A stretch of DNA of 62,656 nt, the filler included, from Porpidia crustulata (taxonomy: Eukaryota): the NCBI GenBank assembly GCA_964255105.1. It is 8 parts of 8 records of this genome, joined end to end, with 100 filler letters (N's around TTAATTAATTAA, not from the genome) between each part and the next. Parts side by side here need not be neighbours in the genome. Positions count along the whole stretch, not along the records: positions 1 to 7,759 come from CAXUWE010001239.1; 7 more parts are not named here. One strand, 5' to 3'. Shown here in pieces: positions 1 to 7,859 of the stretch. Both the position numbers and the translations under genes were made by a program. Below the pieces are notes generated by a model. That model worked only from the letters and a program-made list of their open reading frames with translations. It had not been told where the DNA came from and made no database searches. How positions within the stretch are numbered: position 1 is the stretch's first letter; the number at the start of each line of letters is the position of its first letter.

Positions 1-2780
1 CTTCAAAAAAGAACCCAAATAACTCAACCATCACATCAAAGCCCTCAAACCCACCCCAGCCAAACCAACATCTGCGACGAACGCCCGCAGCGTGGTCAAA
101 GTGCAATGAGGGTGACAGCGCCTCCGGATCTCTAAGTCTTTTGGCTGCTTGCTGTTGGTGTTGTGTGGGAATGCTAAGTGGGGCAAGAAAGGAGGAGGGT
201 AGGTGTTGGGCTTTGTTTGGATTTGTTGGTCTCAACGGCGTCCCTGTCGGTCGCCGCGGTACCGCCAGCATTTATCAACCCTCAGGATAAATCTCTTTGT
301 TCTCGTTGCCGTTTAGATACAGTATTCTTTCCACGGATGACATCACCCCAGCTACTGCTTTCCCAGCTTTCAATACTCGAACAGCTTCAGATATCCTAAC
401 CGTCATTCTCGTCAATAACACTTCCGTCCACGCACTTAAAGCAATATCGAAGGACGCGCTGACTAGGATGTCGAGAGTTCCGGAGGTAGAGGTATGCTGA
501 TCTGAGTACTGGGCTCTTGAAAGTTTTGGTTGGAGATGTTAAGGAAGGAACTGCTGGAGAGTATTTCGGGAATGGAAAGGGGATATGGTAGGGGGGATGT
601 GGAGGATATTACGGATGGTCTTATGCTTCTGATAGCGTGGGATAAAATGAAATTCTGATAGAGCGTTGAAGAGGGTATGGGAAGCGCGGAGGAGATGGAG
701 TGAAGGGCCTTCCTTGTTGGAGATGTTCGAGGAGCCATTAAGAAGGGCGTTCGCGAGGGGGCTGTGTGATGGCGGTGATTGCGCTGGAGGTATGAAGTTG
801 GATGTTGGGTTTCTCGATAAGTTTTGGTCAGACCACACAAAATGGTAGCTTTTTTGAAAGATTGTTTAGTCTTGAGTCGGTAGTGATTCCCATGAACCTT
901 ACCTTTCCTACGGCGTCTCACGTCTTCAACGCTAGCTTCGATATCCTCGCCTTCGATAGTTAACTAGTGCGTCATATCTAACCATCGAGCTAAATTGTCA
1001 TCGCAGAGCCAAAGTGTCTGTGGATATGAAATAGCGAGCTGATTGATCTGGTTATACTGTCATGTGGCAAAATTGATGTATTGCTACGTAGAGATTTGGA
1101 CATCTCTCATTTTCTTTCCGTGAGTTGTGGCACTGCAAGGCTATCCATGGCGTTGAAGCTATTGTAACAACGTGAGAATATGGATGGAGATTTGGATAGA
1201 GCTTTCATCTAGGGCGATAATCGGGGCGCTATTCATGGTAAAGTCTAGAGCACTGGAGTATCTGGTGTGTAGCTTTCATTTCGCTCATTCAACGCAGTCT
1301 CAAAAATCCTCATAGGATGTCGAAGGGTTTGAGAAGGAAATTGGAAGGACGTCAAGGATTCTAAATCATCGGAAAAACACTGTGAATGAGCCCGAGGGCG
1401 AAGACTAGGATGTTCGAGGTGTTCAACACGTTGACCAAGGCGTAGAATCTCGAAGAGGGCGTGGAGGAAGACTTCGAACTCCTGGTGGAGTTTTAGTCAG
1501 AATCTGACCCAAGCGATCGTTATATCAAGAGCAGCGAAAATCGCAAGCGTCCCTTCCCACCTTACCACTAGTACCACCGTCAAAATCCCCACATTTCGTC
1601 TCCTGCAGGCACTGACGGCGTCAACGACTTCCGCAGCTCTCGCAGTCCTTGACACCCCTGGCGATCTCTGACCAATCTTCCAAGCATGCGTGAGGAGATG
1701 CCAAAATGGAGAAGGCGCTGAGGGCGTTGGGGGTGTTCGGAGGCATTTCGAATGGCGGCGATGGCATTGCAAGCGGTGACAGCGGTCCTGAATAATTTTG
1801 AGTTAGTCGTAGACTTTGAAAACTATATGAATCACTGCCGCCTTGTGCTCCACGTTGCTGCTTCTGATGCTTTTGCCGCCACAGTTCTCAAAGCTCTTCA
1901 TAATGTTCTCGGCATTTCATAGAGCGACAAAGGCGACAATGAAGAACGTCTGCGCCCTGGGAAGAGTGAGAAAGTTGAGGGGAGCGTACGTTGAGTGGAA
2001 CGTTTTAAAGAGCAGACGATGAGAGGTGTATCATCCGGTGTGTTTAGTGTCCGTAGCACCCTGCTCAAACCCGGCATTATTCTCACTTTCATTTTGGCTT
2101 CGTGAACAGTTAAACTGGCAGTGGGAACGCCAGGGGTAAGGTCGCGATGAAAAGTTCCGCGGAAGGCGACGGATCATACTTATAAGCAGATCAGTGATAT
2201 GTATTGAACGTGATGAGCATCAGAAGTCCTGCTGAGAAACGAGAAAAGCCGTGAAGCTGAAGAGTTGATGAAAACAAGAAGATGAGAATGAGATTTAGCA
2301 CGCTTGGACTGTAAGCGATTGATACGTTCGAGCATCGTGTTAGCAAAAGGGCTGGAAGTTGGATGAGAGAGATGAAAGCTGTGTCGGTGAAGACTACCAG
2401 CGAGCATGTGTAACCTCCCTTCCTCACACTTGTTCTGCCCTGCGTTTAATCTTTTCTTCATACTCGACGCAGCCAACTCACCCAATGTCCCAAAACACGC
2501 GCAACTCAATCGAAGCCATCGTAACCCTGGAGGTGGAATATTTGGAGCACAAAAAGTCCATGGCTTACAAGTCTCAGCCTTGGTGAATCCGCTGATGAAG
2601 GACAGGAGGGATTCCAAGAGTTGGATGATTGATGTGGGATGGAGGAACGAATAGGGTTAGCGGGGCGAAAACGCGAGAAAATGTATCCATAAAAGCCATA
2701 TGCACCACCTCGCTTAGTCCCGTATGCTTCCTCTCCCTCCACTTTGTTCTCAAGCTTAACCTATACAAACCCCTTAGTAC

Positions 2781-3544
2781 TCACTCAACTTTGCTCTCAA
2801 AATCTCTCCCTTCCACCAAATCCGGGATATCATCATCATCGTCCTCGCCCTCTTCCTCTTTACCCCCGCCACCACCTCCGCCCTCTTTCTTCTGCAGGCT
2901 CTGATAGCTCTCTGCTAGTTTACGCAAGCTTGCCAGGCTGTCGGGACCGAGCTGATTGAGGATCCCTGGGACGAGTTCGGTGAGTTCTTTGTCTTCGCCG
3001 GCGCCGTAGATGGCGAAGGTGTTGGAGGGGACGGAGGCATGGACTATGTATCATAGATCAGCAGATGAAAATTTGGGGCTTCGGTGTTGGGAGGCGGTCA
3101 GGATATGCTAGATGGGTAGAAGGGGCATACCTTTAGGAGCAGCGAAGTGAATTACGTTTCCATCTTCCTTGAACATGTTTACTTCTTCAATGGCCTGGAT
3201 AGGCTGAACATTGAGTTTCTTGAGCGAGGTCTGGAGTTTTTTGTCGTCGGTGCCGGAGGTCTTGTGGACTTTTTTCATCTTTCGGCGGGGAGTACCTTTA
3301 CCGCTGATGTTGATTAGCTTGAGAGGGAAGAAAACGATAGGAGGCTTTAAGATATGATTTGGGCGCGCGGATCTAGCTGGCGTGGTAGAGGGATTTGCTT
3401 ACCCTATATTCGCATTTGATTATTAGCAATGAACATGGGAAGAGTAGCTGCAGAGATTGCATAGAGGATGGAAAGAGAGTTGCCGAGCATTGACTCACCA
3501 ATTCGTACCGACTGCTGCATCTTGGCTAGCTTTGCTTGATCCAT
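2781..3544 (-). CDS. EGD1: Nascent polypeptide-associated complex beta subunit (BTF3/Egd1); exons 3544-3499, 3403 (1 nt), 3303-3131, 3043-2781
   Basis: Manual splicing gives [30 protein letters not shown]...[41 protein letters not shown]...[25 protein letters not shown]...[16 protein letters not shown]. Total 483 nt, canonical GT-AG introns with CTAAT/CTGAT branch sites. Confidence 0.96.
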
Positions 3545-4113
3545 AATTGCGGAGGATTGATATAGAGTTGTCAGTGTAAATATAGTCTTTCAAGAACGGG
3601 CGGTGGGACCCGGAGGTATATGTGTCGGCCGCTGGGAATTGAAGCTTATTTCGATAAGCTGAGAAACAGTAGATTAGGAATTAGAAATAGAACACAACTC
3701 ACGGCGTACTCAGGTACTCAAGCACAAACGTCTGTGGTATGGTGCTTTGGTCCGGGTCCGAAGTTCGTGCAAGGCTAAGCGAGGGTTGGGGAAAAGCTAC
3801 GACCGTTGTTCCCGTTATCAGCCTCCTCGAATCGTCGTGGTTGACGTTTGACATAGGAAGCATATAAATACATGCTTGATGTAGGTAGAGTGATAATTTT
3901 AAATGCCCGTCCAATCATACTAATATCAGTGTAATTTGCAAAAGCTTCCCCATCCCCTCAAATAAAATACAAATATAGATAGTTCCGCCATGAGGTATCA
4001 TTGCTCTGGCTAGAATCGCAAATGCTCCAACGCCTTTTTGTGCTCGCCTCTCCTTTGTATCAAACACTCTGCAAATATTAGAATGGCTTGGTTTGTAGCG
4101 CTTGATTTTCTCT

Positions 4114-6235
4114 TTATTCCTGTTCCTGCTTGATGATACCGGCTCTCAATCGTGCTCTCTTAACCTCAAGAGCTAGTACATCGTTGTCTGACTCGCCAAG
4201 GTCCAATGCCAACCTTTTCCGGGATGCAGGAACTGGTATTGCTGAGCCGGGAGTCACGTTATCCGTAACAATAGATGCCGCGGACGAGGGTTCTGACGTC
4301 CTTCGAGGGACTGCGGCTGTGCTGGGATACCGTATAGTTCGTTCACTCTCATCAGCCGTGATATTTGCGGCTTCGAGAAGTTGGGATCGTGCTTCATTGA
4401 AGCGAGTGTCCTGCTGCTCAGGGCCTGTCTGTAAACGCGGTAGATCACCGTTGGATCTATTCTGAGACTGGTTGCTAATGCTGGCAGCTGGTCGGGCCGG
4501 ATTCGTTGTGCTTTCGTATCCTACAGGCGCGATTGGCGATGTCTGGTTTGTCATATTGGCCACTCCAAATGTATTCCTCAAGTTTGGTAGAGGCCTAGAA
4601 TTCGACAGGCTGGAGTTGTTGGATAGTGCGACATTATTATTCTGCGAATTTCGCGCCGGAAGGGAGCGGCCGTTAGAGTTCCCCATACGTCGCTGCGTAC
4701 TACCTCGAGGTCTGCCCGCCTTTCTCCAACGAGTATGTTCGAACGTAGGTCCATCAACAGCACCTCTCTGCTTTTCCAACCCCTCTATAAACTTCCAGAT
4801 GCTGGCCCAACACTCCCTATTGACCCTTAACTCAGGGTGTATCTCCCTCATCTGTTTCCTCATAGCGAGGATATCACCTCTGAGCATTCCAAGTGGGCGC
4901 TCCATTTTCTGCGAGATCAAGCAGCACACTGCGATGAGCTCAACCGGCGCAAATGTTCTGACAGTCCTATAGCCGTTATCCTCAAATATGCTACGATCCA
5001 GTTCAACTAGCCCTCGGAAAGTTTCAAAGACGAATCGCAGATGTGACTTCGTCATCGCGTCCAATGACTGCGGGTTTGAGCATAAAGATTCGATAGATTT
5101 CATACTGTTCCTTAACCTCGGGACGCCGTTCGCTTGAATAGGATCGAGGCATTCATAGATTTGGGAGAAGCAGGCCAGGATTCCGCGGAACCCGGATGCA
5201 CGTTTCTGTTTGACCAGGTTGACCACATCCGCAAAATCCTTCTCGTACAGCTTGGCGAATTGCTGCCAGCTGCCCTGGGTCGCCCGAAACGCCTCTGCTG
5301 AGGTGAGTGGTTTTCCGAGCTGGACTCTTTGGAAGAGCTCTATCTCTTGTGTCTCTGTGAGACCTCTGTATTCCGTGCATAGAATCTCGATCCTCATAAA
5401 AGCTTCTCGCGCACCATCTGACAATACCTTTCTTTTGTGTCGTTTTATAGGGATACCATTTTCGTCTATTTCTTGGACATCACAGAAGTACCTAGGATAC
5501 AGCTGAGCATCGTGCAATAGTACCATCGAAGTTTCAGAAGCTCTAAAAACTTACCAGAGCTTTTTGTCAATCACAAGTGGAAATTTTCCATTCAAAAAGT
5601 CCCTTATCGACGTCAATCTCTATTATGGTATTAGCCCCATTTCCAAACCAAGGCACCCGACATCATGCTTTACCTGCTTCCCATCCACGCACGTCCGCTT
5701 AAATCTCATGTTTCCATGCTGATCTTTCGTTTCCGTAACATTGAAGATGACCTTTAGGATATTAGCTTAATGAGGTGGCTTCGACATAATTCGTCCGTGG
5801 CTATTCGAAGCATACTGGAGGAATATAATAACCATTTCTCATCGAATCAATCAGCAACCTCATGGCCTTTCTTGACCACACCACACCTCTCTGGTAATGA
5901 GGCGCCAGATCAAGATAGGGACCATTCATCAAATCTGCAATGAATTAGCATCACTTTATTAATTTTGCTTCTCAAAGGGAATCAAGACCAATAAGTTGCG
6001 AGAGCTTTCGCTTGGCAAAGTCATAAGGAGGCATGCGAGGAACATGGTTGAATGGATCTTGAGAAACTTCTTTCTCTTCATTGTCATATTCATCTTCCTC
6101 CTCCGATTCACCAGAATAGGCTTCATCCACTGAGGCTTCATTGACTCCATTTACCCGTGATTCCAAATTAGGGTTGGCCCAAGTTTTATGGACCGAAGGT
6201 GACGCTTTCTGTTGAGCTTTCTGATTTAGAGGCAT
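4114..6235 (-). CDS. DUF262 (GmrSD N-terminal / ParB-Srx-like) domain protein with disordered C-terminus, about 5 exons
   Basis: Spliced exons upstream of the 470-aa ORF give LDLAPHYQRGVVWS...LLIDSMRNGYYIPP|VIFN...CVDGKQ|RLTSIRDFL, followed by ELFQRVQLGKPLT. These are the QR..VW, DGxQRLT and F.R.N/Q.G..L motifs of DUF262. The start codon and first donor are less certain. Confidence 0.8.
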
Positions 6236-7310
6236 CTTGAATCCTTCAGATTTCCTAATGTACTGTTGGATTAGTCTGAGAATTGACGAGCATGGCACAT
6301 GAAACGAAAGAAACCTCCAAGAAATACTTCAAAAATGGAAAAGACATCTTATGAGAATGAGAACAGAAAAAACCAAACATTTGTAACCTACCGCTAAAAG
6401 TGAAACATGCTTTCTTTCTTTGTCAAGTGTTTAATTTATGTACTTAGTAAAACTATTTCCTTTCAGCATGATTTCTTTTCTTGTCGAGTCGTGACATTAT
6501 TGTCGTATTCGTCGCGATTTAATCACTTACTCAAGATAATTTACATACTATTTTACATAAAGTTTGCTCACATAACCTATGCGAATATTCGAGAAAACAA
6601 GAAACTCAAGTAGAAAATTTAATAAATTCCTCGTGTCACATGATTTAATTGGCAGATTTAAATTAAACCTTGATCTTGATTGTTTATCTCTGGTTTGTCG
6701 AGTCCGCAATTGAAAATTTCAATAGCCCGCGGTCTAGAACATTGTGCATGCGAGATTCTACCAATCATATTTCGATATATACTTGTGACACTTTCTTCTA
6801 CCAAATGCTGCTGTGTGACGTGTAGCCATCGACGAGCGAGTTTTGACGATTTTGTGGGAAGTATTTGGGCGAAATGGTTGGTAAAGGACTGAACACTCCT
6901 AAAGACAAAGGAAGTCGATTACTTTGCGATAGGCGTACTCGCCGTTCCATCTAGAGAATAAAGTTGGTTCAAGATCATAGCCTCACAAGTCACCCCAAGC
7001 ATCAATGCCAAGCTGGATTCTAGCAGCGATTCATGCTTGGGCAGCCTAGGCAGAGAGAACAGCGTCGCTATATGCATGGTCCGGTACTTCTTTGTGTATC
7101 TACTGTTAGTAAGAATTAGAATCAGATTTAAACTTTGCATGGGATTCTCACCTTCGGTTCTGCATCTTTCAAGTCTCCCGCATAGGCACGTGAGCCGGTA
7201 CCAAAATAATTTTTAGTCATCCAGCGCCTCGACTTCCCTCTTGATCTCTAGCGTTCCTGGTACGTTCCTCCTTCAATGGTGGTCCTTTGAAGGCGTCGAG
7301 TGACAGCGTC

Positions 7311-7759
7311 TCACAGACCCTCGTCATGGACCTCTTCCATATGCACCCTCCTTAATTCTCTTGAGAACCTCGCCTCTTCTTCTTCCAGATCCCCTCCTCT
7401 CACATGGCTTCCATCAACAAGTGGTGCGGCATCAACTAATATACCGCTTCCATGTGTATTCTGCAATTTAGTAGCTTTTGCACCGTATCCCTCGTCCTCC
7501 AGTCTCTCCACCTCTTCCTCCTCTAGTAAACGACCGTGACCCTTCGTAGCAGCAATTTTGTGCGCAACTGCTGTAGGAATGAAGCGAGAGACCGCCTCTT
7601 TGCGGAGATCGCGCACCATAGGCTTAGATTCATACACAGTCTTCACTACCGGCTGCACTTCTGGTTTAGGAGGGAGCTCGTGCTCCTTCATACCGCTTCG
7701 TTCCCCGCCCCCTCTTCCTTCCCCTAGCGGTTCTAGATTCGCGTTGCCATTGCTCCTAC
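7311..7759 (-). CDS. WW domain-binding protein 11 (Wbp11/Saf1-like) C-terminal part, 5' truncated by contig end
   Basis: KTVYESKPMVRDLRKEAVSRFIPTAV and the VHMEEV tail resemble fungal Wbp11 C-termini. Confidence 0.65.
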
Positions 7760-7859
7760 NNNNNNNNNNNNNNNNNNNNNNNNNNNNNNNNNNNNNNNNN
7801 NNNTTAATTAATTAANNNNNNNNNNNNNNNNNNNNNNNNNNNNNNNNNNNNNNNNNNNN
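7760..7859. other. Artificial contig linker (N44-TTAATTAATTAA-N44)
   Basis: 100-bp N spacer with a six-frame stop 12-mer, identical at 7 sites. Confidence 0.99.

Follow-up and report, generated by a model that had tools for sequence, protein, structure and literature searches.

The NAC-beta (EGD1/BTF3) gene of Porpidia crustulata raises the question of whether a single G, at position 3403 of the 62,656-nt stretch of DNA analysed here (the window), is an exon in its own right or an incidental base inside one longer intron. We conclude that it is very probably a real, constitutive one-nucleotide exon of a single-copy gene, a conclusion drawn from sequence, in which the anatomy of the DNA, its conservation and the joined form in relatives are what was directly observed. 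The window consists of eight contig pieces with N spacers between them (7760-7859 and six similar places), and the NAC-beta contig is confined to positions 1-7759.

The gene lies on the minus strand, and all coordinates given for it in an earlier sequence-only reading were reproduced when we re-derived the structure from the window sequence. Exon 1 (3499..3544, 46 nt) begins at the ATG, ends on the first G of the Gly16 codon and encodes an N-terminus that matches that of related loci. Intron 1 (3404..3498, 95 nt, phase 1) has the donor GTGAGT, the branch point GCTAAT at 3427-3422 and the acceptor TAG; it is followed by the G at 3403 (3403..3403), the middle base of the Gly16 codon, and directly by intron 2 (3304..3402, 99 nt, phase 2), with the donor GTAAGC, the branch point GCTAAT at 3318-3313 and the acceptor CAG. 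The single base is flanked by two introns that each have a donor, a branch point and a YAG, as is expected of a single-nucleotide spliceosomal exon. Exon 3 (3131..3303, 173 nt), which encodes the basic ribosome-binding motif RRKMKK and the first part of the NAC domain, is separated by intron 3 (3044..3130, 87 nt), our internal control, from exon 4 (2781..3043, 263 nt), which runs to the stop codon. With the G, the four coding-exon pieces amount to 483 nt and 160 amino acids, including [12 protein letters not shown]; the glycine codon is thus assembled from three exons, as had been proposed, and its reconstruction yields the conserved motif. When the G is omitted, the product is 24 amino acids long and has the tail AVKVLPAER before a TGA at 3277-3275, inside exon 3, which is the frameshift that the earlier reading predicted.

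The NAC-beta protein is ordinary, and what is unusual is limited to the structure of its gene. The predicted product has both the NAC domain (Pfam PF01849, 56.1 bits against a cut-off of 21.3) and the N-terminal basic motif, it is matched by human BTF3 chains (e.g. 7qwq_u, E 4e-17), and human BTF3 aligns without gaps across the RIGGKG motif. Among named proteins, the nearest come from lichen fungi, Lasallia and Lepraria for example. NAC-beta is a single match in the organism's own genome (22.9 Mb), and within the NAC-beta/BTF3/Egd1 family the host gene is an ordinary member that differs only in gene structure.

Conservation provides the first line of evidence that the base matters. A metagenome scan with exon 3 found at least 405 relatives among at least 580 pattern matches, and the best 80 were kept, comprising 76 genomic loci and 4 joined loci that are intron-free and mRNA-like. 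A branch point-YAG-G-GT arrangement is present between exons 1 and 3 in 76 of the 76 genomic loci among these best 80 of at least 405 relatives. The genomic loci form 37 clusters at 92% identity, and each of the 37, from the same best 80 of at least 405, has exactly one strict match, in which the base is always G. Shuffled intron interiors gave a strict match in 1.5% of 11,100 trials for any base and in 0.37% for G. The conserved thing is the motif's place at the junction, not its genome-wide frequency: the tight motif has 4 matches in the 22.9-Mb genome against 4 in the control, and shows no genome-wide enrichment. Of the three other genome matches, two sit at the ends of open coding frames and are ordinary donors. 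One of these, at L084 (G000:C851:7100-8500), is an ordinary exon end in a frame whose SPPCQ and YGLPQQRVR motifs resemble those of a C5 cytosine methyltransferase.

In a quick tree of the 37 loci and 35 named proteins (140 columns, with 41 of 69 forks open), some loci group with Choiromyces (97), Terfezia (98) and Pyronema (86); others fall with Chaetothyriales (98), others with Amylocarpus (95), others with Lepraria, Letharia and Xanthoria (86), and others with Meristemomyces (83). We take these neighbours to represent the Pezizomycetes, Eurotiomycetes, Leotiomycetes, Lecanoromycetes and Dothideomycetes, the last by one Dothideomycete. No Sordariomycete locus occurs among the best 80 of at least 405 relatives, and a search of genome contigs returned no relative. 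A 49-kb viral contig (L082:1201-1269) has a weak match to the NAC domain, 52% over 23 amino acids (E 8e-5).

The second line of evidence comes from forms in which the introns are absent. A listing of runs that contain the stretch included no RNA run. The joined loci L029, L031, L032 and L033 (1.0-1.6 kb), all from other species, are devoid of introns 1, 2 and 3 and read ATx-GG-N-GGN, so that the G is present in all four joined loci among the best 80 of at least 405 relatives. L032 aligns in four BLAST blocks with the genomic locus L041, which has the one-nucleotide exon, at 92.5% identity in exon 3; because it is also without the 135-nt 5' UTR intron of L041, L032 derives from the spliced mRNA of a close relative of the exon-bearing locus. 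The joined loci, L032 included, may be retrocopies. Proteins give the same picture. Among the best 120 proteins found with exon 3 alone, 46 have no NCBI name, and 17 of these have junction 3 joined and are treated here as transcript-like; 16 of the 17 read exactly RIGGKG. The exception, P0097 (on a 1,003-nt contig), has junction 3 joined and intron-2-like sequence before GKG, and is possibly a partly spliced transcript, either retained or unfinished. A further search gave 31 hand-picked full-length proteins from short contigs, of which 29 passed as intact by rule and 2 on inspection by eye, a count biased toward intact forms by a query that contained exon 1.

We propose that two complete U2 introns, each paired across the intron, would be removed one after the other, so that the G stays behind as the second base of the Gly codon in RIG-GKG, just ahead of the basic motif for ribosome binding. 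The ordered, intron-definition splicing suggested in the sequence-only reading is supported to this extent, with the sequential removal drawn from an overlap in the sequence: intron 1's acceptor and intron 2's donor overlap, so that the two would have to be used in turn. With U1 base-paired to donor 2, the AG of acceptor 1 would be masked. Donor 2 is preceded by GG whether or not intron 1 has been removed, which would permit either order, but intron 1 first seems the more likely order since intron 2 is kept long; intron 1 would then leave before transcription reaches intron 2's branch point. In filamentous ascomycetes, splice sites are described as pairing across the intron, nearest first (PMC6616335), and the authors of the APC11 study argue that two introns one base apart cannot be spliced simultaneously (PMC4674806).

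The lengths of the introns bear on this order. Across the 37 clusters from the best 80 of at least 405 relatives, intron 2 is 82-252 nt long (median 131) and exceeds intron 3 (median 88) in 30 of 37 (p 1.4e-4, kinship ignored), whereas intron 1 (median 100) is not longer than intron 3 (22 of 37, p 0.29, kinship likewise ignored). For comparison, A. nidulans introns are reported to average 73 nt and rarely to exceed 160 nt (PMC6616335). Donor 2 is strong, with A at +3 in 36 of the 37 clusters from the best 80 of at least 405, a count to which the strict pattern contributes by partly selecting A. Skipping would be disfavoured, because the intron to be removed would be unusually long and would enclose a closer branch point and acceptor. 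The span to be removed in a skip is 162-570 nt, and at least 203 nt in 35 of 37 clusters (best 80 of at least 405); however, at 195 nt the window's own span is shorter than in those 35 clusters, which is a point against this argument from length. A skipped message would also be expected to give no useful protein, since the exon directly precedes the basic motif by which NAC-beta attaches to the ribosome (PMC8745203). The exon would be kept, then, because the Gly codon is needed and not for regulation. A length trade-off between introns 1 and 2 was considered and rejected (rho -0.32, p 0.057; with two long outliers removed, rho -0.19, p 0.27). In L005, L020 and L023, intron 1 is 475-487 nt long and is paired with the shortest intron 2 (82 nt).

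One alternative gives the intron pair a regulatory role. Here intron 2, gained one base from an ancient intron, would be kept long as a timing spacer in a selected ordered-splicing device, so that intron 1 leaves first, and stress that slows this step would lead to skipping or retention and then to decay; we regard this as quite unlikely, but if true it would mean that the speed of splicing controls a core ribosome chaperone throughout the filamentous ascomycetes. A regulated switch in which condition-dependent skipping or retention produces the 24-amino-acid early-stop product and, through NMD, tunes the level of NAC-beta, is quite improbable. Skipping does shift the frame and stop translation early, all 76 genomic loci (best 80 of at least 405 relatives) retain the two introns, and P0097 reads into intron-2-like sequence with junction 3 joined. 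Decay, moreover, would conceal skipped forms from assembled contigs. However, none of the four joined loci among the best 80 of at least 405 relatives skips the base, and neither does any of the 17 transcript-like proteins. The skip-frame stop falls at six different outcomes over the 37 clusters from the best 80 of at least 405: at shifted-frame codon 9, 27, 30, 41 and 50 in 9, 14, 7, 3 and 1 clusters respectively, and nowhere within exon 3 in the remaining 3. Introns 1 and 2 show no excess folding (mean z 0.17 and 0.16 against shuffles), donor 2 is strong, and some Sordariomycete lineages seem to have lost both introns at once. The splicing-dependent switch on NAC levels that the sequence-only reading offered is therefore disfavoured, with no skipped form, no conserved stop position and no conserved intron structure among the material examined.

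A search of 12 loci against Rfam, L005 and L020 among them, gave no match and thus no known intron-hosted RNA. Intron self-pairing as a guard against skipping is an idea from yeast work. Some copies of intron 2 looked self-complementary by eye, and the candidate was rejected after whole-intron folding, in which introns 1, 2 and 3 had z below -1.65 in just 2, 2 and 3 of 38 cases, respectively.

Less probable still, and in our judgement very unlikely, is a single long intron with a shifted splice site, the inner AG-G-GT being incidental. A tandem donor 4 nt downstream would add one residue (IGx-GKG), and an AAG acceptor 8 nt into exon 3 would drop three (IG-TPRR). The window permits both as in-frame single-intron routes, from a donor at 3494 to give IGD-GKG and to the AAG acceptor at 3296 to give IG-TPRR. 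The earlier description of the exon as obligatory consequently does not follow from the reading frame alone; it rests on the comparative evidence. Both routes alter the conserved motif, and the G restores frame and motif together. Further in favour of a shifted site, GT is found at donor +5/+6 in 30 of 37 clusters (best 80 of at least 405 relatives), and many NCBI models follow such routes. Against it, the inserted residue would differ between species, neither form appears in the 4 joined loci or the 17 transcript-like proteins, and the AAA Lys codon that an in-frame AAG acceptor needs is found in 17 of 37 clusters (best 80 of at least 405). It also leaves unexplained why branch point-YAG-G-GT is conserved inside otherwise divergent introns.

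The one-base exon explains why most public NAC-beta models of such fungi are wrong beside the ribosome-binding motif. Among the best 120 proteins, the junction is intact in 22 and broken in 94, and 4 are without GKG; of the 74 NCBI-named cluster representatives among them, 5 have the exact junction. The proteins counted are representatives of 90% clusters, one correct cluster alone having 57 members, so that the share of wrong models across all genomes is lower than the representative count because correct proteins collapse into fewer clusters. The errors are of three types, namely intron read-through, insertion of one residue (tandem donor) and loss of three residues (AAG acceptor), all of which follow from the anatomy of the junction. 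In the five correct NCBI models the exon may already be annotated. The Lasallia pustulata models P0001 and P0002 have the read-through IG-QVS, which at the protein level suggests a GC donor of intron 2.

A stwintron, or a zero-length recursive splice site, in place of an exon is barely credible. The likeness to fungal stwintrons drawn in the sequence-only reading is apt in function, since two consecutive splicing reactions are needed here as in the stwintrons of filamentous ascomycetes, where they are described as U2 reactions by intron definition (PMC6616335). It fails in structure: a stwintron has a splice signal of one intron split by the other, and the order is forced, whereas neither NAC-beta intron breaks the other's signal and one base remains in the message. 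Donor, branch point and acceptor are intact in both introns in the primary sequence, and removal of either creates no signal for the other; with both introns complete, the pair is not a stwintron. A sequencing or assembly artefact, which the earlier reading had also raised, has a negligible chance, for although the assembly is fragmented (2447 contigs) and the single run that holds the stretch (word depth 9.8) contains one identical contig that is probably its source and not independent support, the artefact is ruled out by the same arrangement on independent contigs in 76 of 76 relatives (best 80 of at least 405).

How the one-nucleotide exon arose can be approached through protein models that run through the introns unspliced. 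Read back from GKG, such a frame has a codon AG+N (Ser/Arg) before it where intron 2 is present, and x-Gly, with x from a codon NYA, where intron 1 stands alone. From 488 proteins we removed 57 that do not contain the motif, 1 of insufficient length and 296 that were spliced or intact, and ascomycete-type and basidiomycete-type groups were assigned by sequence motifs. Ascomycete-type frames read Ser/Arg in 87 of 88 cases, with no x-Gly and 1 other, while basidiomycete-type frames read x-Gly in 37 of 37, with no Ser/Arg (Fisher p 5e-31); unassigned frames number 7 and 2 in the two frame classes. In 36 of the 37 basidiomycete-type frames x is L, I, V, S, P, T or A, as fits a YAG acceptor, against a background of 0.57. 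Named neighbours of these frames belong to Ustilaginomycotina, Tremellomycetes and Agaricomycetes, and P0234, which is similar to an Entrophospora protein, is also x-Gly.

The presence of intron 1 alone in basidiomycete-type frames and of intron 2 in ascomycete-type frames suggests that the exon probably came about by the gain of intron 2. Judged from protein read-through, intron 1 is probably older than the split between ascomycetes and basidiomycetes, which would share its position, and intron 2 was probably gained later, one base further down, no later than the root of Pezizomycotina. The alternative is that intron 2 was lost in basidiomycetes and other lineages instead of being gained in Pezizomycotina. 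One ascomycete-like frame, P0149, reads x-Gly, and intron 2 may thus be lost alone. Twelve unnamed frames, whose nearest named protein is from Cytospora and four of which sit on contigs of 57-130 kb, continue across the junction without a break yet run into intron 3. At the protein level introns 1 and 2 therefore appear to have been lost together in some Sordariomycetes. Sordariomycete-type frames near Cytospora and Sporothrix proteins, with both introns apparently lost and intron 3 kept, are P0185, P0191, P0208, P0263-P0267, P0269 and P0276.

One-base exons are a known class, of which NAC-beta is a new example with unusually deep conservation. A close counterpart is a one-nucleotide exon in Fusarium CYP621A, described by its authors as the first fungal case (Nelson and Syed 2026, PMC12940212). 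As presented there, it too lies in a fungal nuclear gene, within AG-G-GT, with the G in the middle of a Gly codon that belongs to a conserved motif and with public gene models that are wrong there. However, CYP621A is rarely expressed and reported from Fusarium, whereas the exon of NAC-beta lies in a single-copy housekeeping gene and occurs in five classes, and the two introns together measure about 139 nt in CYP621A of F. graminearum versus a median of about 235 nt in NAC-beta (best 80 of at least 405 relatives). That paper also proposes the rescue of a lost base by a cryptic exon, whereas the NAC-beta data point to the gain of a second intron.

In plants, single-nucleotide exons are described for Arabidopsis APC11 (Guo and Liu 2015, PMC4674806) and for VPS55 (Yu et al. 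2022, PMC8831610). By those accounts they resemble the NAC-beta exon in being constitutive, frame-critical, conserved over a deep clade and missed by annotation, in the joint loss of both introns in some lineages, and in the sequential intron definition proposed for them. The APC11 base is an A and was proven by base substitution, whereas the NAC-beta exon is known from sequence comparison; VPS55 is reported to have alternative transcripts in some lineages. In Coprinopsis cinerea, long reads are stated to reveal 13 1-nt exons in 13 genes (PMC12230235), again in a fungus, but one that is a basidiomycete, and basidiomycete-type NAC-beta frames are without intron 2. A literature search, thin on subscription journals and with supplements excluded, found no paper on a one-base exon in NAC-beta. 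With this locus, one-base exons in fungi are no longer a genus-level oddity but a feature of a housekeeping gene kept in at least five ascomycete classes. The locus probably exemplifies the gain of an intron a single base away from an existing one, and it offers a natural substrate for testing how, and in what order, two spliceosomes act one base apart.

The surroundings of the junction yielded some minor observations. In L073, exon 1 is apparently split by an additional intron whose acceptor lies just before MQNAARI, and the Cercospora model P0442 likewise begins MQNAVRIG. In the window, a candidate 5' UTR intron of 44 nt (3659..3702, minus strand; GTGAGT, CTAAT, a pyrimidine tract and CAG) lies 114 nt before the ATG and would measure 51 or 71 nt if upstream donors were used, according to a pattern scan run without a control. 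Candidates fitting a loose pattern, also without a control, occur in 13 of the 37 clusters from the best 80 of at least 405 relatives. The upstream neighbour of the gene is a 478-amino-acid open frame at 4114-5550 on the minus strand.
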